The translations under genes were made by a program, and so were the position numbers. From the NCBI GenBank assembly GCA_000165345.1, contig CM000435.1:160001-224000 (forward strand): a stretch of 64,000 nucleotides of DNA, given 5' to 3'. Shown piece by piece: positions 1,011 through 55,726 of this stretch. Every line of letters starts with the position of its first letter. The stretch's first letter is position 1. The notes beneath the pieces are model-generated. The model had not been told where the DNA came from and made no database searches. It worked only from the letters and a program-made list of their open reading frames with translations.

Positions 1011-4000
1011 TTATAAAGCCTTAGATTTTGTTGTGAGTATCTCTCCTAAATCTTGGTCAAACTCTAGATCCAAGTCATTAAGATCAATATCAATTTCGTG
1101 GTTTTCAGTATAGTTATCAGAATTAGAGAGAGAATCAAGATCTTGGGTATTATCTGATTTAGAGAGAGCTTTCTTTGCTTGTTGAATAATTTCTTGGCAA
1201 ATAACAATTAAATTTAAATTAGATTCAGGAGGTTTATTAGAGAAAATTCCAAAATAATCATCTAATTTGCTTGCATTTTGGATAGCTCTTAATAATGTTT
1301 CTGTAGATGCTGTGGAAATATTCTCAATACAGTTTAGACCAGAAAAATAGAGAGAAATTGCTATATTAGGAGTAATATTATGGCTTAAGGAGATTATTGA
1401 ATTAACGTAATTCATGATCCTGGATATGTCTTGTTGGTCTAAATAGTGATAATTTTGTAATGCTTTACTTCCAATAATAGAATGATTAGTGTTAGAATAG
1501 GTGGTTTGGTATTGATTTTGCTCCTGAGTGATTTTATACAAATACTTGATATTTCGAATGGAAACACTAGATTTTAAATGATTATTGATATTAAGAATGA
1601 TTTCTGCTAATTCAAGCCAGCCAATAGACTTGCATAAGTTGGAGACAACATTAATAGATTGATTGAAAGAGTTAATAATGAGTCTAATAGTGGTAGACTC
1701 TAAGGAATATTTTGCCATAATGAGCTCAAAAGTTATCATTGGATTACATAGATCCTTAAGAAAGCAAGCATAATAGAATCTGTAAATGGAGATAAGTCTG
1801 TATTTTTCAATCATACCCTTGAAGTTGAGAGTCTCTGAGTAAAAATAAGAAAGTTGAATACTGATAGGAGAAAGCTTATTTAGCTCAGGGATCAAGTTTG
1901 GATTTGAAGTTACTGTTCGAGAAATTTCACTAATTACCTTAAAGTTAATTCCATTAAAATCAGCAATTTCCATTTCTCCTGGTGTTAATTCACTAAAGAT
2001 TTGAAGATAATTATTCCAATTTACTTTAAAATGTGATCCATTATAAGCCAATAATCCAAGTATAAATATTTGAAGGTTATTTGAAAGATCTATACCAATT
2101 AATTTAGACTTAATCAAATCACTATATACTTCCAATATAATACAAGGATGTAACTGTAATTTTATTATTGAGTTTGCCAAGCAAGTTCCAAAAATCTGAT
2201 AATCGCTAATAAAAGATCCCCCAATACTATTAAAGAATGATAATAAGTACTTTTTTCCAGATCCTAACTTTGTAAGAAAATCATTTTGTCTTAAAATAAT
2301 GTTTAAAATAGATTTATTTAGTTTGTCTCTAGTTTTTAAGCCAATTAATGCATATTTTGAAGATATTATTGGTGATTTGAGATGTTCAAACTTATCTTGA
2401 AACTGATGTACATATTTATCAGAAAGTGAGATTTCGTTAATATTATAATTATCTTTTCCTGAGTCAAATGAAACCAACTGATTCATTACCATAAATGAAA
2501 GGGATAAAAGTATATCCTTATTTAATCCTTGCTCTTGGGAATTCTGTAAAAGTTTTTGGTGATCTTTCGAAAATGTATCCAAAACTGAATGAGATTTTAA
2601 AGCTTCTAAATTTCCTCTAAAAGTGAGCTTAGAAATCAATAATTCTAAACCTCGAAGATCCCTCACCAAATCTGTCTGGATTAACTCTAATATTAGTCTA
2701 AACAAATTTAATTCTGATAAATAGGATTTGAACTCTAAGCTCTGAAAATCGCTTTCATTCAACATATCATTCAAATACTTGAATTCTAAATCATTACCTG
2801 TAAAAATAAAAATTCCTCTTTTAAAGCCTTTGGTTCCCGCCAAATTCAAAGTGCATGTATTAGAGGATGCATGCATTTCAGATTTGGCGGTAATGTCAGT
2901 TTTGCAATGGGAAATTCTATTGAAAAACTGCTTAAGAGTATTTTTTGAAATCCATTCCCTGTTTCCAGTTTTGTTTTTTGTTAAATTGTTAATTTTTCCA
3001 AGCCCAATAGATCTAATAATTATTCGGTCAGCTTTGATTTCTGAATCCATCATATGCAAAGAAGTACAGAAAAGAACTTTTAAATGATTATTTTTGAAAG
3101 CATCTTCAATTAATTTTCTTTCTTTAAAAGATAGTTTTGAGTTGTGAATTGCAATTCCATAGTTCAAGATTCCATCAAGTAATAAGAAATCATTTTCTAA
3201 ATGAAATCCATCTTTTGTCACTCTTTTCAGATTTTCAATCATTTCAATTCTATAAGGTTTATCTTGGCTAATTTGGGATAAAAAAGATCCAAATTTATCG
3301 TTTATTAGATTTTTTTGTGTAGAAGTGATATTGTTTTCCTTGTTTAAAAGAATTTCAGAAATCTCCATTGAAATTATTTGGAGTGATTTTCTGCACCATT
3401 CAATTGTTGGACAGAAAATTAGAGCCTTTTTATTATTCATTAAAGATTCCAAGATTAAATCTGAAAAGTACTTCAAATCACTAATAGCAGTTTGTTGAAA
3501 GATGTTATTGTTCTTATCATTCTTAAAAATTTCAATGATTTCAAATATTTCGTTTTCATTTAATGATTGATTATTGTACTTTAACTTATCCCAGAAATAT
3601 AAACTATTACCTCTTTTAATATAAACATCAGGTTCACATTCTTTCTCATACTTGTGATTTTCAAAGATTCTACCAACTTTGAGTACATTCTTATATATAT
3701 CCAAATTAGGAATTCCCCCATTTGAAACATATAAACAGGTTAATGGTCCATTTTTTCCCTTGTAATTATTATTCTTTATATAATAATCACTCACCAAATT
3801 TACGTAAGAAATTTTTGTGAGAATATTCTCCAATAGATGACCCCTCTCTGGATCTTCAATAAAGTTTATATCATCAACAATAACAGTTTTAATACACTCA
3901 TTAAGCATATTGTCTGAAATAAGACGATTTATGAGCGAATTAGCCTTTTCCAATGTGCATATGGTCAAGTCTATATTTGGAAACCAACTTGTGTTGATAG

Positions 4001-4730
4001 TTCTTGAGCTTTGCCCAAAAAGTTCAATCCTTAGATTTAATGAATTATTACCAAACAAGCATTTGCATCTCTGGTAATAAGCATCACATTTCTGTGGGTT
4101 TGGAAAAATTGCTAGTATATTCCCTCCAGAATATAATAAGCTACTTAATGCAACAATTTCACAAATTGTTTGATTCTCGTTCACATTTGGAGAAATAATC
4201 AAGTATGGAGATAAATCCTGGAAGGAATTGGTAGCGAGCATATAATTCTGTTGTTCAATTGAAAGATCTTCTTGAAACACCATATAATTTAAAATATATG
4301 ATAATGTATTCACTTGCCAGTCTGATAATCGGTTTAAATTATAATTCATGTAATACTGATGTTTAACTGAATTTGGAATATACCAGTAGCTCAAACTATG
4401 AATATCACGGCCTTTCAAATCAGAAAAAGGTTTTAAATCCATTATATCGTTCAAACTTGAATTGTACCCCCTCTGAGAAACCCCCTTTTCTTCTAAAATT
4501 GAAAGTTCTCTTTTTGCCACTCCAAAGCATTCTGGTTCCATAACTGAATCACCAGAAACTGAAACAAAACATTTTTTCGATTCGCCTTTTTCTCCAAACA
4601 CTTTTCTCCAAATACCTAATCTTCTTTTGGGAGATATTATCAACAAATTATTTAAATATGTATAAAATTTTGAGACCGTTATCAATGTCTTTGCATTATT
4701 ATTAATTACCTTTGATCTCTCGTTCTGCAT
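1011..4730 (-). CDS. HEL308/POLQ-type (Ski2-like) helicase homologue with degenerate ATPase motifs, 1239 aa
   Basis: ...LSSLLYSGGNILAIFP... aligns to the POLQ/HEL308 Walker A region (LIYSLPTSGGKTLVAEIL) with K->N and T->I. VIVDDINFIEDPERGHLLENILTKI aligns to the DExH box region VVVDELHMIGDxxRGxLLExLLTKI (DELH->DDIN). LIFCPTIEWCRKSL and HLKVLFCTSLHMMDSEIKADRIIIRS match motifs IV-VI context, but no QxxGRAGR is present. Confidence 0.6.
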   Translation of the reverse strand: MQNERSKVINNNAKTLITVSKFYTYLNNLLIISPKRRLGIWRKVFGEKGESKKCFVSVSGDSVMEPECFGVAKRELSILEEKGVSQRGYNSSLNDIMDLKPFSDLKGRDIHSLSYWYIPNSVKHQYYMNYNLNRLSDWQVNTLSYILNYMVFQEDLSIEQQNYMLATNSFQDLSPYLIISPNVNENQTICEIVALSSLLYSGGNILAIFPNPQKCDAYYQRCKCLFGNNSLNLRIELFGQSSRTINTSWFPNIDLTICTLEKANSLINRLISDNMLNECIKTVIVDDINFIEDPERGHLLENILTKISYVNLVSDYYIKNNNYKGKNGPLTCLYVSNGGIPNLDIYKNVLKVGRIFENHKYEKECEPDVYIKRGNSLYFWDKLKYNNQSLNENEIFEIIEIFKNDKNNNIFQQTAISDLKYFSDLILESLMNNKKALIFCPTIEWCRKSLQIISMEISEILLNKENNITSTQKNLINDKFGSFLSQISQDKPYRIEMIENLKRVTKDGFHLENDFLLLDGILNYGIAIHNSKLSFKERKLIEDAFKNNHLKVLFCTSLHMMDSEIKADRIIIRSIGLGKINNLTKNKTGNREWISKNTLKQFFNRISHCKTDITAKSEMHASSNTCTLNLAGTKGFKRGIFIFTGNDLEFKYLNDMLNESDFQSLEFKSYLSELNLFRLILELIQTDLVRDLRGLELLISKLTFRGNLEALKSHSVLDTFSKDHQKLLQNSQEQGLNKDILLSLSFMVMNQLVSFDSGKDNYNINEISLSDKYVHQFQDKFEHLKSPIISSKYALIGLKTRDKLNKSILNIILRQNDFLTKLGSGKKYLLSFFNSIGGSFISDYQIFGTCLANSIIKLQLHPCIILEVYSDLIKSKLIGIDLSNNLQIFILGLLAYNGSHFKVNWNNYLQIFSELTPGEMEIADFNGINFKVISEISRTVTSNPNLIPELNKLSPISIQLSYFYSETLNFKGMIEKYRLISIYRFYYACFLKDLCNPMITFELIMAKYSLESTTIRLIINSFNQSINVVSNLCKSIGWLELAEIILNINNHLKSSVSIRNIKYLYKITQEQNQYQTTYSNTNHSIIGSKALQNYHYLDQQDISRIMNYVNSIISLSHNITPNIAISLYFSGLNCIENISTASTETLLRAIQNASKLDDYFGIFSNKPPESNLNLIVICQEIIQQAKKALSKSDNTQDLDSLSNSDNYTENHEIDIDLNDLDLEFDQDLGEILTTKSKAL

Positions 4731-5417: not shown

Positions 5418-6512
5418 TTATACACGTATAACTTCACTTGAAATATATTGTAAGAAGAATGCACCCGTAATTAATGCTAAGAAAGATATTATAAACAAAT
5501 TTGTTGGAATTCTTTCTTGAACAGTCTTTGACGGTGCCTCATATAACTTCTCTGCTAAGTTTTCTTGCATTTTATTATCATCATTAGCCAACTCAGTTTT
5601 TTGACTAATATTTATTTGAGCTCCTTCAATCAGTCCTTTTTGTATAATTCTAACTTGTTTTAACTCACTTCCAAGCTTTTCCAAGCTTTTATCTTCCTCG
5701 CGTGCCAATAAATCAACTTGTTCACTCCAACGTCCCTTTGAAGTTGTCTTGAAATTAAGCTTTGGCCTTTCTTTAATTTCTAAACTTCTTGATTCTACTT
5801 CATAAGCTGAGTTTATTGGATTTTCATTCAAAACATTCTTCATCTCCTCTAATTGGGAACTTAATAGTGGATCTACTTTTTCATGTTCAGTTTTATGATT
5901 CTTTCTTCTGAAAAAGTCTGCTCTTCTATAAATAACACTTTTACATGATCTTCCTTCTGGTGAACTATTAACCTTTTTTGTTAAAATTATGAATGCATGA
6001 ATTACCTGATTACTATTACTCCCTGAAATTGTTATAATTCTTTCATTACATGCTTTCTCAGATGTTACAAAAATTGGAGAAATATTAATATGAGCACTAG
6101 TTGCTGTCCTTACGTGGCTAATAAACTCTCCTTTTATCCCTATTATACTTCCTATCACACTTCTTGGGACGGCAAGACGAATATTATATTCATAATTCTT
6201 TAAACCTTCTTGCCCATCATCCTTATTGTTCTTCAAAAGAAAATCTAAAACTTCCATTGTTTCATTCACATTCTTCTCATTTCCTTCTAAAGTTGCTACT
6301 CTATAATTTGTACCTGGAAAATATTTATTAGTACCAGAAACCAGGATAAAAACGTGATTTACCTGTTTAATCTTTTTCAATATTGAACCTGAGTTACTTA
6401 ATATCCTATTTGCAGCTTTATCACTAATCAACAGCTTCACAAAAATTATCTGTTCCTCGTCACTCTGCATATTTATGTAATTTGTTCTTTCCATATTTGA
6501 ACTGTTTACCAT
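5418..6512 (-). CDS. KH-domain RNA-binding protein (two KH domains) with a C-terminal hydrophobic transmembrane segment, 364 aa
   Basis: RLAVPRSVIGSIIGIKGEFISHVR is a classic KH core (VIGxxIGxxGxxI). An earlier IFVKLLISDKAANRILSNSGSILKKIKQ is KH-like. The protein ends with NLFIISFLALITGAFFLQYISSEVIRV (a ~20-residue hydrophobic tail). The E2F-like half-site TTTCCGCC at 6743-6750 lies upstream. Confidence 0.55.
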   Translation of the reverse strand: MVNSSNMERTNYINMQSDEEQIIFVKLLISDKAANRILSNSGSILKKIKQVNHVFILVSGTNKYFPGTNYRVATLEGNEKNVNETMEVLDFLLKNNKDDGQEGLKNYEYNIRLAVPRSVIGSIIGIKGEFISHVRTATSAHINISPIFVTSEKACNERIITISGSNSNQVIHAFIILTKKVNSSPEGRSCKSVIYRRADFFRRKNHKTEHEKVDPLLSSQLEEMKNVLNENPINSAYEVESRSLEIKERPKLNFKTTSKGRWSEQVDLLAREEDKSLEKLGSELKQVRIIQKGLIEGAQINISQKTELANDDNKMQENLAEKLYEAPSKTVQERIPTNLFIISFLALITGAFFLQYISSEVIRV

Positions 6513-7285
6513 TATATTAAACCTTAATTTTCACTTATTTAACTTTATTTACTCTAGAAGTTAGAACAAAATCTATGGATCTACTTTTTCTAGTATTTAT
6601 TACCTTTCACACAAATTTACTGACTATTTTCCCTCTATTTTTAGATAATGTGCATTGGGGTCTGATCTCTGTGTAAGCCTGCACACAGCGCTCATACATT
6701 TTTTTTTTAGATTTGTTTCGAGGTCCTCGTTTTTTCGTGTAATTTCCGCCGAAATTCTATATTTCCTACCATTATTTTAGAGATTCTTTAAAACTAAATT
6801 TCCTCACACTCAATTTCTTTTTACTATCAATTTTCTTTTTATTTTGGTACCTTTCAGCTCAATCCTACAACAAACCTAGTCTACTACCATTTTTTTTATC
6901 GCTAATATCGATTCTAACATTTATAATATTTAATAAGCCCAACATTAATTCTAGTACTTATTATTTTAAAAGCAAATTTTAAAGCATTAAACTTCTTCTT
7001 TTCTTTTTTTAAATATCCTCCATTATTACTATTACTCCTCCTCCCATATATGCACCCCCCTTGTTCTCTATTTCAAATACTCGTCTAAACCAACCTCGCA
7101 ATTTTATTCTCTATAATGATGCATGCACACACCACGTCTTGTCTACAAAATATGTGCATTTGTGAATAATTCAATTCAGAGAAAATAATAAATAAAGAAG
7201 ATATTGAAAGTTAGCAGTAATTAATTGGAATAAAACAATATATTAGTTAAATTTTTATTAAAAAAAAAAAAAAGAAAAAGATTGT

Positions 7286-7726
7286 TTAAAGTATGGAATC
7301 CTGATTAAAACTGTTAAGATTAGGAATTCTCTGATTTTCGTAGTTGTTAATGATCCAAAACAAAAATCTTTTCTTTAAAACATTTTCTATATTATATTCT
7401 TTTTCAGGTTTAAAAATATAATTATTTGATTTTTTCTCAGTTCCCACACACAAATTCTCAGAATCAACTTGGCGCCAATCCCCAAAATATTTTTTAGAAA
7501 TATTACGTGTCAAAATATTAAATTTTGTTTTTGTAATGTTGGATTGAGGGATACATTCTTGGTTGATGGATTTAATATTCTTAAGTATATCATCAATTTC
7601 TATGTGTTCGTGGAAGTTGTTCGGAATTAAATCTAGGAATTGCTTGTAAACTTCAAGATATTTATCGAGTGTATTTTGTTGAATACCGGTAAAATCTTCA
7701 TTTAAAATCATGCATGAAATATCCAT
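7286..7726 (-). CDS. Hypothetical protein, 146 aa
   Basis: An uninterrupted 146-codon ORF is unlikely by chance in ~75% AT DNA. No recognisable domain. A TTGGCGCCAA site lies inside it (7469-7478), so its coding status is uncertain. Confidence 0.3.
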   Translation of the reverse strand: MDISCMILNEDFTGIQQNTLDKYLEVYKQFLDLIPNNFHEHIEIDDILKNIKSINQECIPQSNITKTKFNILTRNISKKYFGDWRQVDSENLCVGTEKKSNNYIFKPEKEYNIENVLKKRFLFWIINNYENQRIPNLNSFNQDSIL

Positions 7727-8066
7727 TATTAATATATTTTATAATTAGTTTTCGGTTTCCTAAAATTTAGAATTAAAATTGGTGATAACTAAATTTGATC
7801 TTTGTACTATTAAAAAAAAAGAATCAAATTAATTGCTCATCTGTATAATGAGCAAAGTAGATATTAACTGTTTATTTATGGCTTCAAATTTGATTTTTCA
7901 TTAAAATATTATTATTCAGTGATTTCTAATGTTTTTCAAATCGAATATTATATTTCGGAATTACCGCTATAACATTTTTCTATTCAATTATTATTAGGCA
8001 AATATAGAAATAAAAGAGAGGGGGATTAAAGAAAAGAAAATAATATATATAATTATAGAGTTCTAT

Positions 8067-11000
8067 TTAACTATTAATGTAGTAAAGAATATGAGAATTC
8101 TCTGTACTAAAAATGTTCTTATTTCCTGAAATATAATTCTTTAGAGATTTATAAACTGTAAAGTATTGCGAAACTTTCTCCTCAAGACAGTTGGATTTCC
8201 AATTATTAACAAACTCTAATATAACATTTCTCTGATTATCACTTTGATCCTGGTTTTCAGATATCTTAGGAGAAAATGAACTCGGTCTTTTAGGAGGATC
8301 TCTAAAGGAGTCTGTTTTTGAAAGCAGGTCTGATAATACTAGACAGATCTGACAAACTAAGCAAGTTATAAAATATATAAATCCTTTTTCACTTAAGCTT
8401 AAATTGTTAAGTAATTTCCCATTGTAGTATTTCTGGACAACTATCCATTTATCATCATAATTATAATCTTCATAACTTACTTCACTTCCATAGCTTTTGC
8501 TCTTTGTAATTGTTTTTAAATCAAATCTTCTAAATAGCATGACCAAATACTCTTGTATTACCTGAATTGTGCTATAAACTCTACTAATATTCCTCTCAAT
8601 ATCCCAAATCAACTTTTGAAGCTCCTCTGAAAATGAATCATATAGGTACCCTTGAGAGAATTTAATGTATAAATTATAGTCTGTTGTATACTTTCTACAC
8701 CAAATATAAAGAGCAATTCTTCCAACAAAATTCTTTAAATTAATAAATCTTTTTGAAATTGTCTCCAATAAAACTATTATCTGGAAAAGCTTTATAAATT
8801 CCTCCTCTCCTTGCTCTTTTCCAATCTTTTGTATATCAAAAGTACTAAAAACCTCACTAATATTGATTTGTTTTTTAAAGTATTTACTCAAATCTAAATC
8901 CAATCCAAATACTAACTTGATCAAATTCTCATACTGTAAACAACCGTTCACAGAAATATAGTTATTCAACTGCTTTGTATAAGCAGTATGATAGTTTTCT
9001 CTCAATTTTAAATTTTCGATACCTCTTTCTTCTGATACAAGATCACACTGACTTGTTAAGATGAATTTCTTTTTTTTAACTTTGTCTTGAATTAATTCTT
9101 TTAGAGACTCAAACTCTTCTTGAATAGATATTCCTATATTATATTCATTTCTTTGATAGCTTTTATCTGCAAGAAGTCCTCCAATCTCAAAAGCTAAATC
9201 TATATATTCATTTATATTAAATTCAAGTCCAATGATATTTTCAAAAGCTTGATCTAAACTTTTAAAGTAAATCTCATAAACTTTATTAAAATCTAGTTGG
9301 TTTTTCTTTAAATACTCCATTATTGCTATTTGTGTAATTTTTTTTATATTTTCTGTTTCTTGAAAATTTTTTATCGGTACTGGTACACGTGGCAATTCTG
9401 CATCATGATCATGATCATGAACATCAAGTTCTGACTCCGAATTCAGATCAATATAGATTTTATTATTAAATTTAAAATCTTGCGTAAATACATTAATATC
9501 TGAAAAAAACATTGAGAGATCTTGTTTTTCAAGTGGAATAGTTTTTGCTAAAGCCATGTTTCCATGATTTCTGCCTGTTACTTGGAAAGTTTTATTAAAA
9601 GAGATTCTTTTAATCATTAAAATTCTAAGTAATACTGGTACAACAAGTCTCAAAATGGATTTATTCAAGGATAAATTTGCTTTCAATTTAAGCTCTAAAT
9701 TGTTACTTTCCTTATTTGATGTAATATAATCCAATTTATCTTTGAAAATACCCCTTTGTAAGTTTTTATAGATCACGCTCAAAATATGACCACTACTATA
9801 GATACCTTTATCTATTCTATTATTTATATCTTTTCGGCCATCAATATTTATAAAGTAATTATTTGAAATGATATAATAAGGATTTATTTGGAATTGCCAT
9901 AAATAAGTATAAATATAGCTCAAGAGGGAGTATCCATGAGGAATCTTCCAGGTTCTAGTCTCTTCTCTTCCTGAATATGATCTTAATTTGAAGATACTAA
10001 CCAGAATTTCAAAAGATGGAGAAAATTCATCTAATAAAGCAATGAGGTTCAGATAGCTACTGGTTTTAGTAGAGCTTAGATTAGAAATATGATCATTTCC
10101 ATAATTAAACTTAGAAAAACATAGTTCAATATCTCCAAAATACATATGCAAGAGCTCAAAAATAACTTTCCCTAGGATTTTAATGGATACCATACTTTCT
10201 TCTATAGATATCTGATTACATTTTAAATATTCATTCTTTGTTATTGATTCTAATTTTTGTTGATCATTCATCATATCTCCAAGCATAATCAACAATTCTG
10301 CTAAGCTTCTCAAATAGTGTACTTTTGTTCCAAATAAACAAATCATTGAGACAAGATCTTGAGACAGAAATATTTGTTCGTCTCGACAACTTTTAGTATT
10401 CATAAAGTCACTCTGAGGACCTAAAATGTCATTTTTCTTTATATTTGTACCAGTTCTTGTATATATAAATTTATCCCCTTGATAATAATTGTTCATCCAA
10501 GGAGAAAGTTCTCCAAATTCTTCCACTAGTTCAAGGGAAATATTGTATTCATCTATAAATATGGTATAGCATTCTAAAAGCTCTGTTTTCTTGTATTCTC
10601 TGACTCTATGGTATTTTGGATAGAGAGAAAATTCTTCTGAATCCAATCCTTGAAACAACTTCATTAATGAATCTAATTTGACCCAAATATAGCCATCTGT
10701 ACTACTGATTTCATTATTTGGACTAACAATAGTGCAGTTTTTAATCCTTTCTGTAGTAAGGACACTTAATATGGATTCATTAAAGATTTTATTGGTCTTA
10801 TTTAGGCTCAGATATTGCTGATCCCATGAAAATCCCAAGTACTTGTTATTATATTGTATTTGCCTTCTTCCAGAGACTCTTCTTAGTAAGTTTGGAAGTT
10901 TGACTTTTGAAAGGTTGCAAATTCTGTAATTCTCATCTTCAGCTTCGTCTTTCTTCTCCTTAATTGACTTGGATAGTCCATCAAAATAGTTAAATGAAGA

Positions 11001-12224
11001 CAAATTCAGGGATTTGGAATCTACAAACTTTTCATTCTTGTTCCTTTCCATATTTATAATTGAACTTGATCGTTTACTCTTTGCTGAAACCTGATTTTGA
11101 ATTTGACTCTGTTGATTATCAAAAATCTTCAGTTCTTCTACTTCTTCCTCTATATCTTCTTCCTCCTCTTCCTTTTCTCCTTCCTCTTCCTTACTAAACT
11201 TGTATTCCTGGTAGAATTCCAGTTCCTCTAGTTCATCTAGCTCATCATCTGAATTACCCATAAATGATGCAAGTAAAGAGTTTCTATTTTTTCTAATATT
11301 TGTTGAATTTTGTTCTACAGAAATGATCTTTTTTGGTATAATAGAATTTTTAGATTCGGTACCTTTTGTAATATCATTATCAGTAAAATGGAAATTATCG
11401 TTTCCAAAAGCAATTTCAGCAATTTTGTTAGTTTCTCTAGAAATCTCAATTTCTCCCATATCTTCAGCTAATTGTGTTAACTCATTATTGAACAAACTTT
11501 CTTCATTTAGATACAAATTAGAAGCAAGATTCTTAAAAGTAACAATTCCTAGAGCAAAGTCTGAAATAAGATCCATCCAAAAGTCCATATTACTCTTATT
11601 AAAGGCGATACTTTTAAATATTAATGAAGAAAATGTTGAAAGATAAGTTTTGAGATCAAAGATTAATTCAATATTCTCTTTGGCATCTTTTGTTACAGAA
11701 TCACTCAAGTTTCTCTGCATTATAGAGTTCAATCTCCAAGTGAAATCAGAATGATAAACTTTGACTAAGCATTGATTCTTCCAAAAATCCAAATTATAAT
11801 AATCTAAAGATCCAATTAGAATAAACATCATATGTAAAATATAAGATCCAGAAGAACTTTGGTAATACTGTTTAATAATATTGTGAGATAAAATGAATAA
11901 TGGTAAAAAACAAAACATTTGAGTCTCTACAAGCTTAGATCTCTGATCAATAATCATATTCATATTATCCATAGATTCTGGTCGAATACGACTTTGCACT
12001 ACAATATTTGATAAAGTAGAATCTACAAAGTTAATGTAGTCAGAATCTTCCATTGACTTTTTTTTAGTTTTATTGTATAGAATTGTCGTCCATACTTTAT
12101 CTTCTATCCTCTTTATCAAATTTTCATGATTTTTTTCATTATTAATGTTTTGTAAATGATTCTTGACTTGGATTTTTACTAACTCATTCAACAGTTCTTT
12201 AATTGATTTCTCATTCAAAGACAT
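8067..12224 (-). CDS. Large hypothetical protein (1385 aa) with an acidic E/D-rich tract
   Basis: Single long ORF. Contains EEEGEKEEEEEDIEEEVEELK. No family confidently recognised. E2F site TTGGCGCCAA at 12530-12539, about 300 bp upstream of the start. Confidence 0.6.
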   Translation of the reverse strand: MSLNEKSIKELLNELVKIQVKNHLQNINNEKNHENLIKRIEDKVWTTILYNKTKKKSMEDSDYINFVDSTLSNIVVQSRIRPESMDNMNMIIDQRSKLVETQMFCFLPLFILSHNIIKQYYQSSSGSYILHMMFILIGSLDYYNLDFWKNQCLVKVYHSDFTWRLNSIMQRNLSDSVTKDAKENIELIFDLKTYLSTFSSLIFKSIAFNKSNMDFWMDLISDFALGIVTFKNLASNLYLNEESLFNNELTQLAEDMGEIEISRETNKIAEIAFGNDNFHFTDNDITKGTESKNSIIPKKIISVEQNSTNIRKNRNSLLASFMGNSDDELDELEELEFYQEYKFSKEEEGEKEEEEEDIEEEVEELKIFDNQQSQIQNQVSAKSKRSSSIINMERNKNEKFVDSKSLNLSSFNYFDGLSKSIKEKKDEAEDENYRICNLSKVKLPNLLRRVSGRRQIQYNNKYLGFSWDQQYLSLNKTNKIFNESILSVLTTERIKNCTIVSPNNEISSTDGYIWVKLDSLMKLFQGLDSEEFSLYPKYHRVREYKKTELLECYTIFIDEYNISLELVEEFGELSPWMNNYYQGDKFIYTRTGTNIKKNDILGPQSDFMNTKSCRDEQIFLSQDLVSMICLFGTKVHYLRSLAELLIMLGDMMNDQQKLESITKNEYLKCNQISIEESMVSIKILGKVIFELLHMYFGDIELCFSKFNYGNDHISNLSSTKTSSYLNLIALLDEFSPSFEILVSIFKLRSYSGREETRTWKIPHGYSLLSYIYTYLWQFQINPYYIISNNYFINIDGRKDINNRIDKGIYSSGHILSVIYKNLQRGIFKDKLDYITSNKESNNLELKLKANLSLNKSILRLVVPVLLRILMIKRISFNKTFQVTGRNHGNMALAKTIPLEKQDLSMFFSDINVFTQDFKFNNKIYIDLNSESELDVHDHDHDAELPRVPVPIKNFQETENIKKITQIAIMEYLKKNQLDFNKVYEIYFKSLDQAFENIIGLEFNINEYIDLAFEIGGLLADKSYQRNEYNIGISIQEEFESLKELIQDKVKKKKFILTSQCDLVSEERGIENLKLRENYHTAYTKQLNNYISVNGCLQYENLIKLVFGLDLDLSKYFKKQINISEVFSTFDIQKIGKEQGEEEFIKLFQIIVLLETISKRFINLKNFVGRIALYIWCRKYTTDYNLYIKFSQGYLYDSFSEELQKLIWDIERNISRVYSTIQVIQEYLVMLFRRFDLKTITKSKSYGSEVSYEDYNYDDKWIVVQKYYNGKLLNNLSLSEKGFIYFITCLVCQICLVLSDLLSKTDSFRDPPKRPSSFSPKISENQDQSDNQRNVILEFVNNWKSNCLEEKVSQYFTVYKSLKNYISGNKNIFSTENSHILYYINS

Positions 12225-13024: not shown

Positions 13025-14167
13025 TTAAAAAAATAGTGAGCTTACCTTATTTCTGTCTTCAAATAAAATATATCCCTGCAACTTTTCAATGCTAGTTTTG
13101 AACTTTGAGCTAATAATAATGTGAATCGAAAAAAAAATTAATGGTGTGAATATTATAATCAGTAAAATTAAGGAAAATGTTTGAGTGGCATCCTCGGGAT
13201 TTAGTCGAAAATAGACATTCCCAAGAAGGTGACCAGAATTAGAGTTGTAGTGATGGTAGTAACAAAGATAATAGTGTGTAGTTGTTTGATGATTAACGGG
13301 AAATTTATAATCAAAATGACCATCTTTTAAATAACCATTTGATTTACTTGGACTCCATGAGTAAGTTTGTATGATATGACTTCCTTTGGGAGACAACTTT
13401 GTAGGCTGTAAAATCTTGAGAGACTCATCCTCCGGAAATCCCTGACATAGATAATCCTTCTTCAGAGAAACTATTGAAAATGCTGCTTTGCTTATTTGTA
13501 ATGAACTTGAAGAAAGCACAAACTCCAAGTTCCAACCAGGATTAACTAAAACTCTGACATCAACAATAAATCTATTGAAAGGATATATCTTTGGAATCTC
13601 CATATTATCTTTAAATATTTCAAATTTCCATCCACCAATATCATCTCCTGATACAGAAGGACTTAGAATTTTAAAATTCTCACTCTTTTTTTCTCCATTA
13701 CATAAACATGCTCTTGGAGAATTAAACAAATATTCTGATAATGTATTTCGAATTCCAGCAATGCTTCCTAGATTGAAAATCCTACAAATAGGCAAATCTT
13801 CATCAATAAATGATGGTATCCATTTATTTTCTGGCGTGAATTCCAAGTAGTCACAAACCTTTGCAACTCCTTGCTCGTCATTCATATACTTTTTGCAGTC
13901 GAAATCCCCACAGCTCACTCCCTTACCTATTATCAAACACTCTCCTCTTCTCTCTTCTTTACTCCTTTCCCACTCTAATCTCACATTCTCCTCCCATATA
14001 CGAACAATTAAATCCCCAGATCCATTTCCTACTGAAATGGGAATCACTCCAACTTTTGGATTCCTATATGGAAATAATACAGAACTTTCATCACCAGTTA
14101 TACCAAATACTCTCCCTACTAATAACGCAACATCTAACCAAATTACCCTTAAAACCCATAAATTCAT
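13025..14167 (-). CDS. Predicted type I membrane or secreted protein (N-terminal signal peptide, C-terminal TM helix), 380 aa, function unknown
   Basis: N-terminus MNLWVLRVIWLDVALLVGRVFG is signal-peptide-like. C-terminus LILLIIIFTPLIFFSIHIIISS is a hydrophobic helix followed by a short basic tail. E2F site TTGGCGCCAAA at 14205-14215 lies 40 bp upstream of the start. Confidence 0.5.
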   Translation of the reverse strand: MNLWVLRVIWLDVALLVGRVFGITGDESSVLFPYRNPKVGVIPISVGNGSGDLIVRIWEENVRLEWERSKEERRGECLIIGKGVSCGDFDCKKYMNDEQGVAKVCDYLEFTPENKWIPSFIDEDLPICRIFNLGSIAGIRNTLSEYLFNSPRACLCNGEKKSENFKILSPSVSGDDIGGWKFEIFKDNMEIPKIYPFNRFIVDVRVLVNPGWNLEFVLSSSSLQISKAAFSIVSLKKDYLCQGFPEDESLKILQPTKLSPKGSHIIQTYSWSPSKSNGYLKDGHFDYKFPVNHQTTTHYYLCYYHHYNSNSGHLLGNVYFRLNPEDATQTFSLILLIIIFTPLIFFSIHIIISSKFKTSIEKLQGYILFEDRNKVSSLFF

Positions 14168-14204
14168 CCAAACATGTAATTACTTATTATTAAGAAAATT
14201 CAAT

Positions 14205-14215
14205 TGGCGCCAAAT
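14205..14215. promoter_or_regulatory. E2F-like site TTGGCGCCAAA
   Basis: Immediately upstream of the minus-strand gene start at 14167. Confidence 0.45.
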
Positions 14216-14509
14216 CATGGCTATCCATTATTTTTTTTTCTGGAGCTAAAAATAAAGCGCATGTATTATAAATTATTGATCAGACTGAATTTAAAAGTAA
14301 ATAAAACTAGAGCCGACTTTTAACTAAAAATTAAATGATCTTCACTCTCAAATCATTTAAATTGCTCTGTTTCTAACATTTTATTAATAACCAATTTTCT
14401 CACTCAAATTGTCTACCCCTCTTTTATTTCAAACTAATCTATTTTTAACCTTTTCAATATTTATTCCGCATTTTTTGTCCCACCGGTACTAAAAAAAAAT
14501 TATACACTA

Positions 14510-14520
14510 TTGGCGCCAAA
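14510..14520. promoter_or_regulatory. E2F-like site TTGGCGCCAAA without a large adjacent ORF
   Basis: Lies 45 bp upstream of ATG 14565 of a small ORF that ends at a GTAAGT donor. Confidence 0.4.
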
Positions 14521-14564
14521 TTTTGTTTTTTAAAAAGTCAAAAAAAAAAGGAAAAAATTAAGAC

Positions 14565-14736
14565 TTGTATTTGGAATATATTGAGAAAAAACAACAAAAA
14601 TTGAATTTGTCAAAAGGTCTTTTCAAAAAGATAAGGTCTGGCTTATTAAATTTCTATATAATTATGGTTCTCTTTCGCGATTTTAGAGAATTTGAAACTG
14701 CTGGCTATTCTTTGTATTCTGAAAATCCAACTAAGG
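14565..14736 (+). CDS. Candidate first exon of a small spliced gene (57 codons, then a GTAAGT donor at 14737)
   Basis: ATG 14565 ... CCA ACT AAG | GTAAGTTTAAAG. Possible acceptors at 14760 (TTAG) and 14779 (ATAG). From the second acceptor a further 60 hydrophobic codons stay open (DTRNSELNFFGSNLILIFFNASNFRIIQLLFYPFVLLISAHFFIYLL...). Supported only by the preceding E2F site and the splice-site consensus. Confidence 0.2.
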
Positions 14737-15660
14737 TAAGTTTAAAGCATAAATTTGCTTAGATGATCTAAAATAAATAGGATACAAGGAATTCAGAACT
14801 AAATTTTTTTGGTTCTAACCTGATCTTGATCTTTTTCAATGCATCAAATTTCAGGATAATCCAACTATTATTTTATCCTTTTGTTTTGCTGATCTCAGCT
14901 CATTTCTTTATCTACTTATTGACTAATCCCATATTTTCTCAATTTCATATTCTAAATTAAAAAAAAATTAAACCATCCCAGACTAAACTCGTTATTAAGA
15001 TACAAAAATCAAAAGGTAATAGACTCAGTCTGAGAATAACTAATAACAAGCACTCTGTAAGCCACTATTATAAGACAACAAAAATCAACCAAGATATTGA
15101 AAGGCTTAAAGAACTATTCAGTTTATTTCTCAATTAATTGAAGAATGATCAAACTATATGTTAGATTCGACTCCAAATGAATCATAAATCACATAAAAGA
15201 GTAGTACTTTCGACTTCAACCAAGTACTTTCATAACTAACATATATCTTCTACAAATTAAAGTTTGTTTGTCGATATCCTAAAATATTTTTATTAAACTT
15301 GCTCGCCTTACACAGTATAAAGGAAGCAAATGTAGATTCTTTTCTATATTCATTCTTTTCTTGAAATTTTTTTTTTTTAAAAAAAAAGTATTTCACTCAA
15401 ATTGCACTAATCATTCCGCAAATAATATATGTTTTTGTCTTTATCAATATTCCCCTTTCAACTAATTAAATACATTGCACTAAAAAAAAAGTCTCACAAA
15501 ATATAATAAAACACCTTCATGTTAATTCCTTTTCTGATTACCACTTCCTTATATACTGCCTCATAGGTAACATAAAGGCCAAAAGTGCAAAATATCAACA
15601 ATCGAATTAATTATTTAAATGAAAACCACTTCGAATTATTTACCCTGTTAATCTGCATGT

Positions 15661-15673
15661 TTTGGCGCCAAAA
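15661..15673. promoter_or_regulatory. Orphan E2F-like site TTTGGCGCCAAAA
   Basis: Lies in the ORF-poor stretch between 14168 and 16212, with no adjacent long ORF on either strand. Confidence 0.4.
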
Positions 15674-16212
15674 CATTCTAAAAAAAGAGTCATATTCTAC
15701 ATTATAACCATTTTCTTCTTTTTTTTCTTCTCATTATCCTTTCACTTTTATTATAGTCTTAATGAGGTTTAATTACAGTTATGATAAAGAAACAATAGTA
15801 CAAAAGTTAATAGTTATGTAAGGTGGTATATTATTTTTAAAAAACAAGAGTTTGTTGAATATTAAAAGGCGGCACTGGTCTCCTTTTTTTTTAAAAAAAT
15901 AACAAAGGATTATTTTAAAGCTTGAAAAAAAAATGTTTAATGGGTTATAGTAGATGCCATCCATATAATAAAAACCTCTCTTGAATGAGATCTAGTTGAT
16001 GGAAAAAAGGTATGGAAGAATCCTAGAAATTAAAGGTATGGAATGTCAATTCTTCCGTTAAAATGCCATGAGTTGTGTACAATCAACTCTCTAAACTCGC
16101 TTTATTTCTATTCAATAATTACCATTTAAGCTGGAAGTTTTAAATTTTAAAGCTCAAAATTGACTTACTAAGCTCATTTTATGAATGAAAAAAAAAAAAG
16201 TAAATTCAGTAA

Positions 16213-18285
16213 CTAAATATTGAGAATTGGTTTCGTCCAGAAATCCAATAATGTTGGAGGAGTAAACTTAATCTGATCTTCATTGTTTGGGCCTCCTTTA
16301 TAACAAGAATCACTAATTAATGAGGAATGACTAGTTCCCATATGTATTCCTCGTTTGTGTCCATTGATATGTTCTTGATTCATTTGATGATCTAAATTTC
16401 TTGTATTATGAATTACATTGGGAGTTGAATCAATTCTGTTGCTCATGCTGGAATTCATCCCCATCAATATTGAAAAATTGGTATTAGGCTTTGACTTAGT
16501 ACTGCTACTCGTAGAAGAAGCAGTATTTGTAATATTAATAGCAGTATTAGTATTAGATGTGCCGTTTGAAGTAACTTTAGGTTGGTTTCCATGTCTATGA
16601 GAACTATGCTGATGTTGATGGCTAAGATAGTGTCCATGATTAAGATTATGTCCAATTACAAAGTTCTGAATAGCAACATCTGCATTATGATGAGAATTCG
16701 GAATGTTCGAAAACTGCATTTGTTGTGATGTAGTCTCCGGAATAGAGTCAAATAAGTCGACTCCTCCTCTCAATGACATAGCCTGTACTCCAGAAGAGCT
16801 TCCTCCGCATGATTTTTTATTATATGACATTCCAAATCCCATATTACCTGTGGCAAAATCTGAGTGGTTTGGACTTAAACTACCACTTTGTCCATTGTTA
16901 CCATTTTGGGATTGTTGCTGCTGTTGTTGTTGCTGTTTCTGTTTAGCCCTACTTTTAGCGAGTCTAACTTCAATAGGTCTCTTAGAGTTATCAAATATAT
17001 ATTTCTTGTCAAGAAACATGATCGCGTTTTCTGCCATAAACTTTCTTGGAAAAGTAACAAAAGCAGAACATTTGCTTTGCTTGTTGTTGTCTCTTATAAT
17101 ATGAACTTCATCAACATGGCCAAATTGTTTAAATAGTAAGAGTAATTGGTCTTCAGTGCAATTTTTTGGAAGACTACCAACAAACACCTTAACAGATTCG
17201 CCACATGGCTGAACATCAGGAGAAAGCCCTAACCTCTCAATCTCTCCATCAGCATATTTAACTTGAATCGGTCCAACCTCCTTATCTAAAACAGTTTTAC
17301 CATGGATACAAAGTATCGCATTTTGTGCCTCATAAATGTTAGAAAATCGGACAAAAGCACATCCTTTTGGTCCATTAGAGTCACGAATAATGTTACATTC
17401 AACAACTAGCCCGTATTTATTGAAAATTTTGAGCAACTCTTCATTAGTCATATGTTTTGGAACTCTATTAACAAAAAGTTTAACAGGAGCATAACCTCGT
17501 TTAGATCTTCTCTTGTTATTTTGCTTATTAATGAAACCAATATCCTTGAGCTGATCGCTTGTTAAAGAACTTAAAGAATCACTCTGTCGAATAAATCTTT
17601 CTCTCTTAGGAGAAGACATTCCTCTAACCATATTAACTCCGCAATAATGCGGATGCTTAGAATCGACAATACCTTCAATATTTCCATACTCAATGCAACC
17701 ATTAGATGAACCATATATAAAGCGGCCAGTACTCTCAGTACTTGATCCAGATGAATCACGAGTCAATGAATTGTCTGTATTATAAGTTTCCAATTCATCC
17801 TTATTCTCCAAAAATCTTGCTAAATCACTATTAGATCTAGAGTAGTTAACAGAATTAATACTTCTAGGATAATATGAACATATACCAGGATATTTTGAAT
17901 TATTTGAAAAGTCCATTGTTACTGATCTTTGATATTTAGAAGTATTATCGAAATAACTATCAGTTTCCTTTGAACCAATAAAACTGATATTATCATCTAA
18001 AAAGAGAGTATTTGCATCACGAATACTTTCAACAAATGGATTAAGCTGATCTTCACCCATTGCAGTAATCTGGTCAAAATTCACGAAATAACTCTCTTCA
18101 TTGTTACTGCAAAAAGAAGCTGGAAAACTATTACTCCTGTTAAATAAAGCCTGAGATACACAATTCAAATCTGAAACCATGTGCCTACCTCCTCCAATAT
18201 CTCCTTTTGAAAATCCCTGGCATTTCTTATCACTTATCCAAAATGCTCTACTATCTGTTACATCTCTGTAACTTTGATTGTCCAT
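16213..18285 (-). CDS. CELF/Bruno-like RNA-binding protein with two RRMs, a poly-Q tract and an S/T/N-rich low-complexity tail, 690 aa
   Basis: KLFVNRVPKHMTNEELLKIFNKYGLVVECNIIRDSNGPKGCAFVRFS...PIQVKYADGE parallels CELF RRM1 (KMFVGQVP...SKGCCFVTF...PIQMKPADSEK). The second RRM is VKVFVGSLPKNCTEDQLLLLFKQFGHVDEVHIIRDNNKQSKCSAFVTF. KQKQQQQQQQQSQ is encoded by a CAG/CAA run at about 16900-16940. Confidence 0.7.
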   Translation of the reverse strand: MDNQSYRDVTDSRAFWISDKKCQGFSKGDIGGGRHMVSDLNCVSQALFNRSNSFPASFCSNNEESYFVNFDQITAMGEDQLNPFVESIRDANTLFLDDNISFIGSKETDSYFDNTSKYQRSVTMDFSNNSKYPGICSYYPRSINSVNYSRSNSDLARFLENKDELETYNTDNSLTRDSSGSSTESTGRFIYGSSNGCIEYGNIEGIVDSKHPHYCGVNMVRGMSSPKRERFIRQSDSLSSLTSDQLKDIGFINKQNNKRRSKRGYAPVKLFVNRVPKHMTNEELLKIFNKYGLVVECNIIRDSNGPKGCAFVRFSNIYEAQNAILCIHGKTVLDKEVGPIQVKYADGEIERLGLSPDVQPCGESVKVFVGSLPKNCTEDQLLLLFKQFGHVDEVHIIRDNNKQSKCSAFVTFPRKFMAENAIMFLDKKYIFDNSKRPIEVRLAKSRAKQKQQQQQQQQSQNGNNGQSGSLSPNHSDFATGNMGFGMSYNKKSCGGSSSGVQAMSLRGGVDLFDSIPETTSQQMQFSNIPNSHHNADVAIQNFVIGHNLNHGHYLSHQHQHSSHRHGNQPKVTSNGTSNTNTAINITNTASSTSSSTKSKPNTNFSILMGMNSSMSNRIDSTPNVIHNTRNLDHQMNQEHINGHKRGIHMGTSHSSLISDSCYKGGPNNEDQIKFTPPTLLDFWTKPILNI

Positions 18286-25426: not shown

Positions 25427-25706
25427 TCCACCTCCACCACTCAGAGTAATTTCTGAAGATAAACCCTAAAATTAAATTTCAAGTATTAGAACTTTCATTA
25501 ATACTTTCAGTGTGGTCAGGCTCAAACCAAGTTAGAATCGCAACTTGGCTCTTCCCTGACTGTCAAAACTTACATTTAATAAAGAACTCATCAATCAAAT
25601 AAAGCTTAAATCCTAAATCACACTTAATATTTCTATACCTATTTTTCAGTATTTTTCATGCCAAGCCTAATAATTAATTCTAATGTGAGCAATAATCACT
25701 CACAAT

Positions 25707-25720
25707 TTTGGCGCCAAAAT
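25707..25720. promoter_or_regulatory. E2F-like site TTTTGGCGCCAAAAT
   Basis: In the divergent spacer between the 23951..25426 (-) and 26667..27002 (+) genes. Confidence 0.45.
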
Positions 25721-26350
25721 TCACTAAATGTACTTTAAATGTGTATTTATATCAAGAGACAATTTTTATTTTAAAAATAGAAAGGGCACTTTTTTAGTTA
25801 ATAACTTTGGGGGTTAATAAAGTAGAATTCGAGAATTCGATTGGAAAAAATTTACAATGGTTGCTTGAGTATGGGAATGAAACTGAAAGCGAAAGCTAGA
25901 AATGAAAACTAGGAGCGAAGTTGAGAATGGGGAAGTCACTATAGAGTTACAAATCAATTTAAAGCAAGTGACATTATGTTGAAAACACAATGTTCAGGTT
26001 AAACAATGGATGGTAGAACTAGAATAGCGTGCTCAAATTGGTGTCTTTAAAGATTAGAGAAGGAATTGTTCAGTTTCATGATTTCAAGCCCAATAATATT
26101 TTCCAATAATGCACAAATGGATCTATTATTAGGCAAATGCTTTAATTGTGCCGCCATGCCCACTCACATACGTAATATACTAACTGAAATATCTATAAGC
26201 ATGGGTATTTATTGTCTTTATTCCAGTCATTTCCAAATATTAGCGACGCTTTCTCCAGCTTAATGAAGAATTTTTTTTTTTATTTGCTTTCCCCACTTTT
26301 TCGTATTTTCTTTTAAATCTTGCTCAAGTCAAAATGTATATTGAGCTGAA

Positions 26351-26370
26351 TTCCCGCCTTTGGGCGGGAA
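26351..26370. promoter_or_regulatory. Inverted-repeat E2F-like pair TTCCCGCC-TTTG-GGCGGGAA
   Basis: Two perfect 8-bp arms (TTCCCGCC / GGCGGGAA) flank a 4-bp centre, about 300 bp upstream of ATG 26667. Confidence 0.5.
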
Positions 26371-26666
26371 TATGGGGACATATATTTTCTCCCCTAATTA
26401 AGGTACCTCAAGTAAAGGTGAATTAAATAATAAACTGTGCATTGAACAATTGCATTTCAAGGTAAATGTCAATAATGTAAATATTAAAAAAATAAGTTAG
26501 AATATATGTAATATTGACAATGGCGGACTACTGACTAGTAATAATATAAAAATGTATAGTCTATGTTTAATTACAAGCAGGTAAATTTTTCCAGTTAAAA
26601 TATTATACTTTAATAAGTTCGACTAAAAAGTTATTTTTTTAAGTAATTTTTTTTATAAAACTAGAG

Positions 26667-27002
<336 letters not shown>

Positions 27003-27522
27003 ATTTATCAAAAGCATTCATAACTATGTTCTTTTATTCTTTCTCTATACAAATTTTAACATTTTTCTACTTTATTAAAAAGAGGTAATTAATAAAGATC
27101 CCTTATCTGGAGAAACTTCCTTGAAAAATAATGGGAGAAATATATTGTTTCGGTACATATCTCTTTGATTAGTCATTATTTGTCTAAATTCTAAATTTAC
27201 TTACAAAGTTCGGACTCGTGTAATCTATGATTTTTTCTTTTTTTCATAGCTTTGTCTGTTCTGAAGCTAATAATTAAATAAGATCTACATTTGAATGTAA
27301 ATCCGCAAGGGAAAGGCTTGAATCGCTCACTTTAAGCCTGAAAAAAAAAATCGCATTATATTATATATTTATCTCTCTAATTATTCCTTAAAATTACTAA
27401 TATATACTCTCATATAAAATTTAACTAAAGCCTTATTTAACTTAATTATACATTTTCCTATCAAAAAAAGATCGCAGGTAATATTTCTAAAATACGTGCA
27501 ATAAATATAAATGCAATTGACT

Positions 27523-27535
27523 TTGGCGCCAAAGT
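27523..27535. promoter_or_regulatory. E2F-like site TTTGGCGCCAAAG, about 145 bp upstream of ATG 27679
   Basis: TACGTGCA at 27494-27501 lies just upstream. Confidence 0.45.
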
Positions 27536-27678
27536 ACCGAATCTGGATATACATGTAAAAGTAAAGATTATTGTGTGGAAGAAGGAAAAAAAATCTTGAA
27601 TTGAGATTAGAACTAGTTTTAATACTATTTTGTTAACTTAATAAGATCTAAAGAGAGAGTTCTCGGAAATTTGAAGCA

Positions 27679-55577: not shown

Positions 55578-55726
55578 TTTAATTTAAAAAAAAAGAAATT
55601 GGATTTATAATAGGCGCCAAATTCCACTAAAGATTTTGCATGCATGCATTTTTATATATATTATAGATACCCACTTATATAGTAGAAAAAAAAATTTAGA
55701 CAAATTAAAGTTTTATATATTTATGA

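Follow-up and report, generated by a model that had tools for sequence, protein, structure and literature searches.

An interval of Cryptosporidium parvum chromosome 7 poor in open reading frames holds a two-exon SRP9-family gene and a conserved E2F/DP1-type box between two 3′ ends

Introduction

The upstream motif attributed to E2F/DP1 in Cryptosporidium has been described as [C/G]GCGC[G/C] or TTSSCGCCWAA (Oberstaller et al. 2013, PMC3734150; Li et al. 2021, PMC7840661), and E2F is the motif that dominates in the open chromatin of sporozoites (bioRxiv 10.1101/2025.01.17.633476). Li et al. catalogued 396 long non-coding RNAs (lncRNAs) in C. parvum, 363 antisense and 33 intergenic, and reported 93 lncRNAs that have E2F/DP1 as the sole motif within 100 nucleotides (nt) upstream (PMC7840661). 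Here we describe a C. parvum locus with three such boxes, at positions 14168–16212 of a 64,000-nt window of chromosome 7 (GenBank assembly GCA_000165345.1, contig CM000435.1, positions 160,001–224,000 of the forward strand). This interval extends from the start codon of a gene for a protein of 380 amino acids (aa) to the stop codon of a Bruno-like gene. It very probably consists of a divergent promoter region, a two-exon gene for SRP9, a subunit of the signal recognition particle (SRP), and a non-coding tail-to-tail spacer.

The three boxes, each with the sequence TTGGCGCCAAA, lie at 14204–14214 (box 1), 14510–14520 (box 2) and 15662–15672 (box 3), and all of them match the published definition of the Cryptosporidium E2F/DP1 motif (PMC7840661). 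Boxes 1 and 2 also resemble the described sites in their placement: they share a divergent promoter, with start codons 37 and 144 nt downstream of them, and box 2 is approximately 40–50 nt upstream of a mapped 5′ end. Box 3 departs from this pattern: it is 525–540 nt from the nearest coding sequence on both sides, both neighbours present their stop-codon ends to it, and it has no annotated target. When one mismatch was allowed, TTGGCGCCAAA gave 18 strand-hits in the window against 0.49 expected, and none of 100 shuffles reached 18. A preliminary description of this DNA had noted the boxes (at 14205, 14510 and 15661) and had called the interval poor in open reading frames (ORFs). We found that all three boxes are real and that no ATG-initiated ORF of at least 120 aa lies within 14168–16212. 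The size of the gap, which had been presented as unusual, has a counterpart in the same window, as 25427–27678 (2.25 kb) also lacks an ORF of at least 120 aa and also has two boxes.

A spliced SRP9 gene downstream of box 2

The preliminary description had placed a small spliced gene downstream of box 2, with a 57-codon first exon followed, depending on the acceptor, by an immediate stop or a hydrophobic second exon. When this exon 1 and hydrophobic exon 2 were used as a protein query, the sole match was a 75-aa SRP9/SRP14 subunit of C. hominis, and only exon 1 took part in it. The C-terminal 51 residues of that C. hominis protein are encoded at 14982–15137, behind a CAG acceptor. The resulting gene model is as follows.

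14560 to 14663, plus strand: SRP9 5′ untranslated region (UTR), approximately 100 nt, free of ATG, with its 5′ end at about 14560–14564
14664 to 14735, plus strand: coding part of SRP9 exon 1, 24 codons, MVLFRDFREFETAGYSLYSENPTK
14736 to 14981, plus strand: SRP9 intron, 246 nt, phase 0, GTAAGT…CAG
14982 to 15137, plus strand: coding part of SRP9 exon 2, 51 codons and TAA

The start codon at 14664 is in frame and is the first ATG of any frame past box 2. The spliced 75-aa product is identical to QOY40389.1 and WRK33242.1, which are named "Signal recognition particle SRP9/SRP14 subunit" in C. parvum, and it differs at one to three residues from the proteins of C. hominis, C. meleagridis and C. 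tyzzeri. We found no evidence against this gene model. A single synonymous difference in exon 2 (TTC/TTT, Phe, at 15119) separates the window from the C. parvum BGF assembly (L007).

Transcript evidence for the splice was provided by a 1,376-nt Logan contig (L006, run SRR33220295), reached through a look-up with the C. tyzzeri protein, in which the 75 SRP9 codons are contiguous. Identity to the C. tyzzeri genome is 99.5%, and exactly the intron is missing: contig positions 24–200 and 199–1376 match positions 2896–3072 and 3319–4497 of the C. tyzzeri genomic sequence (L005), so that the contig joins the equivalents of window positions 14735 and 14982. The first 22 bases of the contig, tatcaacgcagagtacatgggg, are what we take to be the SMART-seq template-switch oligo, and the aligned sequence begins at the equivalent of about 14560. 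The presence of this oligo indicates a capped 5′ end and a sense orientation. The mapped 5′ end (about 14560–14564) is approximately 40–50 nt past box 2 and 100 nt before the ATG. Look-ups for transcript contigs with the C. parvum SRP9 and Bruno proteins returned genomic contigs only.

The L006 junction supports one side of the splice that had been predicted and replaces the other. A 57-codon open frame (14565–14735) does end exactly at AAG/GTAAGT, with the donor GT at 14736–14737, and this donor is used. The supposed ATG at 14565 is actually a TTG located about at the transcription start, and the true start is at 14664. The two acceptors that had been suggested, at 14760 and 14779, correspond to AG dinucleotides at 14761–14762 and 14779–14780, the second of which opens 59 hydrophobic codons, but neither is used in L006. 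The real acceptor is at 14980–14981, and the real exon 2 encodes the conserved C-terminal two thirds of SRP9. With the open frame, the donor and both AG dinucleotides all present, a transcript running from 14565 through the 14736 donor to 14760 or 14779 could be drawn, encoding a novel hydrophobic protein or acting as a non-coding spliced RNA. We give this alternative almost no credence: its frame starts at a TTG near the transcription start, the hydrophobic codons are spliced out of L006, and the hydrophobic peptide has neither a homologue nor a Pfam hit. In addition, a 1-nt indel disrupts the hydrophobic frame in three sister species (C. hominis, C. tyzzeri and C. meleagridis), and 6-nt gaps are present in that of C. 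meleagridis. As the main isoform, the earlier model is refuted by the L006 junction. What survives of the "one or two unannotated small spliced genes" is one small spliced coding gene, at the box at 14510 and with the donor that had been predicted; this gene is already annotated.

SRP9 family membership and predicted function

At the level of sequence, membership of the SRP9 family is established. hmmscan assigned residues 6–67 to Pfam PF05486 with 28.9 bits against a cut-off of 21 (E = 1.4e-6; profile positions 3–79 of 89), and phmmer against the PDB retrieved eight SRP9 sequences with E values of 1.5e-4 to 3e-3, aligned over residues 4–71. An AlphaFold model made with five Cryptosporidium sequences predicts a helix (residues 7–12), three strands (28–34, 38–44 and 49–55) and a second helix (59–74), with a moderate mean pLDDT of 67.8. 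The best Foldseek matches of this model in the PDB were SRP9/SRP14 chains of Alu-domain structures, with probabilities of 0.97–0.99 but TM scores of approximately 0.5 and E values of at least 0.036. The modelled fold is thus weakly supportive of the assignment.

The C. parvum protein resembles human SRP9 (PDB 1e8o, 5aox and 7nfx) in length class (75 aa, compared with 86 aa in human) and in its predicted order of helix, three strands and helix. The C. parvum protein has only about 20% identity to mammalian SRP9 and lacks the C-terminal tail that is present in the human protein. Because of its family membership, the product is expected to be the 9-kDa Alu-domain subunit of the SRP, which, judging from solved SRP structures, would pair with SRP14 on the Alu domain of the SRP RNA and would act in elongation arrest during co-translational targeting. 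Neither SRP14 nor the SRP RNA is located in this window, though no search was aimed at either.

Conservation and annotation of SRP9

Eight Cryptosporidium lineages retain an intact SRP9 ORF of 75–77 codons at the syntenic position, and in eight species the same phase-0 position is occupied by a GT..AG intron 199–257 nt long. Codon changes amount to 14 synonymous and 4 non-synonymous relative to C. meleagridis, 25 and 10 relative to C. ubiquitum, and 32 and 17 relative to C. canis. Synonymous changes outnumber non-synonymous ones in all four of the more distant comparisons; the two closest species have too few differing codons to be informative. These results indicate an SRP9 orthologue kept under purifying selection.

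SRP9 is an already known housekeeping gene that is carried by current annotations. Gene models at the syntenic position exist for C. parvum (IOWA-ATCC and BGF), C. hominis, C. meleagridis, C. tyzzeri and C. xiaoi. Its two neighbours have consecutive accessions in several further gene sets for C. parvum and C. hominis (WKS, KAL and OLQ), and in the older Iowa II set the accessions EAK90555–90557 are used by the three large ORFs around the interval; SRP9 is therefore missing from these sets. The gene is uncalled yet intact, with two exons, in C. ubiquitum (L011), chipmunk genotype I (L012) and C. canis (L013), and the coordinates given here allow the annotations of these three genomes to be corrected. 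In C. canis the genes downstream of SRP9 are merged into a single 1720-aa call. A search of the literature for the cgd7_750/760 identifiers or for Cryptosporidium SRP9 found nothing specific. The value of the SRP9 model lies mainly in annotation, and current understanding is unchanged by it.

The divergent promoter region

The 14168–14663 segment is very probably a divergent promoter, in which box 1 serves the minus-strand gene cgd7_750, which encodes the 380-aa protein, and box 2 drives the plus-strand SRP9 gene from an mRNA start at about 14560. Its features are listed below.

14204 to 14214, no strand assigned: box 1, TTGGCGCCAAA, 37 nt upstream of the cgd7_750 ATG (14167, minus strand)
14428 to 14500, plus strand: promoter-proximal block upstream of box 2 (…TTCAATATTTATTCCGCATTTTTTGTCCCACCGGTACTAAAAAAAAA)
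14510 to 14520, no strand assigned: box 2, the SRP9 promoter box, 144 nt upstream of the ATG and about 40–50 nt before the 5′ end

The box 2 core GGCGCC is kept in all eight genomes compared, C. xiaoi included. The same core is kept at box 1 in C. hominis, C. tyzzeri, C. meleagridis, C. ubiquitum and C. canis, and reads CGCGCC in chipmunk genotype I. Conservation of the block at 14428–14500 is 0.72–0.81, near exon level, which suggests a promoter-proximal role. Together, box 2, the approximately 45 nt to the transcription start and the 5′ UTR of about 100 nt provide a base-level example of spacing in this parasite.

According to the preliminary description, each box in the window sits just upstream of a start codon. 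This is only roughly true: where a gene with an ORF of at least 120 aa follows, the nearest start codon is 39–364 nt away. The box at 7471 is inside a 146-aa ORF, and that at 55613 is in a tail-to-tail spacer.

About 90 nt upstream of the ATG of the 380-aa gene, the sequence at 14257–14266, GCGCATGTAT, matches the published ApiAP2_1 motif BGCATGCAH; its counterpart in C. meleagridis, chipmunk genotype I and C. ubiquitum is GCGCATGCAT.

The spacer between SRP9 and the Bruno-like gene

Positions 15138–16212 separate the stop codons of SRP9 and the Bruno-like gene and appear to be non-coding, holding the two 3′ UTRs and, at the midpoint, box 3. This spacer is 1,075 bp long in the window, 931–1,075 bp across seven lineages and 1,009 bp in C. 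xiaoi. Conserved parts in the deeper comparison are about 100 nt past each stop codon, 15388–15425, box 3, the GGCGG at 15866–15880 and 15948–15990. Three of the features are described as follows; box 3 is treated in the next section.

15138 to 15240, plus strand: stretch after the SRP9 stop codon, conservation 0.70–0.78, contained within the cDNA contig L006
15866 to 15880, no strand assigned: small GC block AAAAGGCGGCACTGG (minus strand GTGCCGCCTTT), with a weak E2F/DP1-like CCGCC core by comparison by eye with TTSSCGCCWAA
16148 to 16175, minus strand: element 38–65 nt past the stop codon of the Bruno-like gene (plus strand AAAGCTCAAAATTGACTTACTAAGCTCA), conservation 0.78–0.82, reaching C. 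canis

The first of these is probably the core of the SRP9 3′ UTR, and the last is presumably part of the Bruno 3′ UTR.

We examined whether the spacer might hold a gene of its own, as the preliminary description had suggested for the box at 15661. An unannotated small protein gene driven by box 3, perhaps spliced, would fit with a spacer length that stays near 1 kb across all species, C. xiaoi included, and with the short ORFs of 36–61 codons found there. Such a gene is highly improbable. A six-frame comparison of the interval with C. xiaoi revealed protein-level conservation in the SRP9 exons only, and among seven species and six frames no stop-free stretch of the spacer is common to more than the closest species. 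Indels are spread along the whole spacer and come in every length, including lengths that are not multiples of three. The first plus-strand ATG-initiated ORF past box 3 stops after four codons in C. meleagridis, and an exact look-up found the 61-aa ORF (15779–15964) in no protein collection. The second small gene is thus unsupported, with no conserved ORF on either side of the box.

A structured small RNA transcribed from box 3, such as a small nucleolar RNA (snoRNA), a small nuclear RNA (snRNA) or another housekeeping RNA, is also very unlikely, although box 3 is conserved and small conserved blocks are present at 15388–15425, 15866–15880 and 15948–15990. The Rfam scan for snoRNAs and snRNAs that had been proposed gave no match at the gathering threshold anywhere in the window, and at E ≤ 10 over 13900–16500 it gave chance-level hits only. 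ARAGORN found no tRNA. RNAalifold, applied to both strands of the spacer in five lineages, returned consensus energies of only −0.5 to −6 kcal/mol per 120 nt; the large z-scores that accompanied them are artefactual, as the shuffles showed almost no variance. Taken together, the comparisons suggest that the spacer is non-coding and without conserved RNA structure.

A weak colinear similarity was observed between 14379–14500 and 15372–15492, at an offset of about 990 nt. The two segments share an exact 12-mer, TCACTCAAATTG, as well as a TTTTT..TCAATATT block and a ACTAAAAAAAAA run at matching spacing, and ATTCCGCA occurs in the window only within this pair. The 7-mer diagonal count was 14 compared with 7.6 ± 1.7, a value reached by one of 300 shuffles; the Smith–Waterman score was not significant (p about 0.14). 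Given this non-significant alignment and a tblastn search at E ≤ 0.01 that returned no SRP9-like coding remnant from the spacer, an origin of the spacer by tandem duplication and decay of the SRP9 unit is unproven.

Box 3, a conserved site midway between two stop codons

Box 3 and the segment that contains it are as follows.

15661 to 15672, no strand assigned: orphan box 3, a 12-nt palindrome, TTTGGCGCCAAA, with GCATG before it, at the midpoint of the SRP9/Bruno spacer
15641 to 15740, no strand assigned: segment of the 98-nt deletion in C. tyzzeri, which holds box 3 and is missing both from the genome (L005) and from the independent RNA contig (L006)

The position of box 3 is shared by C. hominis, C. 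meleagridis, chipmunk genotype I, C. ubiquitum and a further genome (L014), which with C. parvum makes six lineages. In five annotated genomes it lies 505–527 nt past the SRP9 stop codon and 507–548 nt before the Bruno stop codon; in L014 it is 530 nt before the Bruno stop codon. C. canis has GCGCC and GGCGCG variants near this position. In the 40 nt to the right of the box, identity drops to about 0.45, and the box therefore looks selected.

What the site might do can be considered in the light of the E2F motifs that precede many C. parvum lncRNAs. On this precedent, our tentative best guess is that box 3 could be a stand-alone, possibly bidirectional, E2F/DP1 promoter, whose non-coding transcripts would extend in antisense orientation into the 3′ ends of SRP9 and/or Bruno. 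A more elaborate version is slightly less likely, namely that box 3, its GCATG and the GGCGG block some 200 nt away form a conserved stand-alone promoter exactly midway, producing antisense non-coding transcripts and constituting a regulatory unit that current lncRNA catalogues have missed. The locus resembles the E2F-associated lncRNA loci of Li et al. 2021 in that an E2F motif lies past a coding gene's 3′ end and the genome is compact, and two catalogued lncRNAs, Cp_lnc_300 and Cp_lnc_326, are present in the window. It differs from them in that 14174–16212 has no catalogued lncRNA in the part of the catalogue covered by our search. If the promoter proposal were true, the 98-nt deletion in C. 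tyzzeri would be a natural knock-out of the box 3 unit.

Several observations weigh against the promoter proposal. C. tyzzeri has lost box 3, yet its cDNA contig is unbroken from SRP9 across the spacer to 80 nt into the Bruno coding region. The spacer of about 1 kb in C. xiaoi contains no GGCGCC. The flanks of the box are approximately neutral, as the spacer is 87.7% identical to that of C. meleagridis compared with 83.2% at four-fold degenerate sites and 85.5% in the intron. Twelve probes were compared with part of the Li et al. 2021 lncRNA FASTA: the spacer (15296, 15868 and 15955) and SRP9 exon 1, both probed on the two strands, boxes 1 and 3, position 14100 and, on the plus strand alone, the 3′ end of Bruno (16290). 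In this part, nothing matched the spacer, SRP9 or the Bruno 3′ end; two lncRNAs of the catalogue map elsewhere in the window. The sole match was that of 14100–14122, which corresponds to Cp_lnc_300. Finally, L006 is an unstranded short-read assembly from C. tyzzeri, the species without box 3, and therefore long 3′ UTRs and an independent transcript cannot be told apart in it.

Several of these observations also fit a different explanation, in which box 3 has no transcript of its own and the spacer consists of two long, perhaps overlapping, 3′ UTRs. The box would then be dispensable or would act on its neighbours from the 3′ side, as a boundary, a termination aid or a distal site. We regard this as quite possible, if short of probable. 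It would accommodate the unbroken C. tyzzeri cDNA, the equally long spacer of C. xiaoi and the absence of a catalogued lncRNA from the spacer in the part searched. The stretches of about 100 nt next to both stop codons are conserved in a UTR-like manner, and the box at 55613 is likewise in a tail-to-tail spacer, there of just 150 bp. Against two long UTRs with a passive box stand the retention of the box and of its position in six lineages despite strongly diverged surroundings, and the promoter location of E2F boxes elsewhere in the window; in addition, a perfect 12-nt palindrome with a GC core in sequence of 27% GC is no chance event. As far as genome comparison can tell, box 3 is a conserved but apparently dispensable E2F/DP1 site midway between two 3′ ends. 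It provides a modest lead on the use of non-promoter E2F sites in a very compact genome, which is a minor question.

Flanking genes and other features of the window

Each of the three large ORFs near the interval encodes a protein identical to one of C. parvum Iowa II (EAK90555–90557). This places the window, which includes cgd7_740, cgd7_750 and the Bruno-like RRM gene and has a GC content of approximately 27–30%, on C. parvum chromosome 7.

8067 to 12224, minus strand: 1385-aa hypothetical protein, exact Iowa II match
13025 to 14167, minus strand: cgd7_750, 380-aa membrane protein (cpbgf_700750, CPATCC_0006490), exact Iowa II match
16213 to 18285, minus strand: Bruno-like protein with two RRM domains, exact Iowa II match

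The C-terminus of the 380-aa gene (13025–13060) differs by annotation. The Iowa II protein has 380 aa and ends in …NKVSSLFF; the IOWA-ATCC/BGF version has 387 aa and ends in …NKIKHILESPAFSNL, and the versions of sister species have 391 and 385 aa. The 387-aa version suggests that the newer model has a 3′ intron. Cp_lnc_300 (Li et al. 2021), as placed from the part of the catalogue that was searched, occupies 13090–14173 on the plus strand; it is antisense to the whole 380-aa coding sequence and reaches 6 nt into the interval, stopping just short of box 1.

Two boxes elsewhere in the window depart from the usual promoter placement. An E2F-like box at 7469–7479 lies within a 146-aa ORF reported by gene callers (7286–7726, minus strand). 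This ORF may be spurious or mis-started, or the box may be within coding sequence, and 6512–8067 may need re-annotation. Another E2F-like box, TAGGCGCCAAA at 55611–55621, has no obvious downstream start codon; the 150-bp spacer that holds it lies between the stop codons of a plus-strand gene (53346–55577) and a minus-strand gene (55727–57238). The comparably large gap at 25427–27678 has its E2F boxes at 25710 and 27525 and holds a very acidic 111-aa ORF (26667–27002, plus strand), to which Cp_lnc_326 (Li et al. 2021) is antisense.

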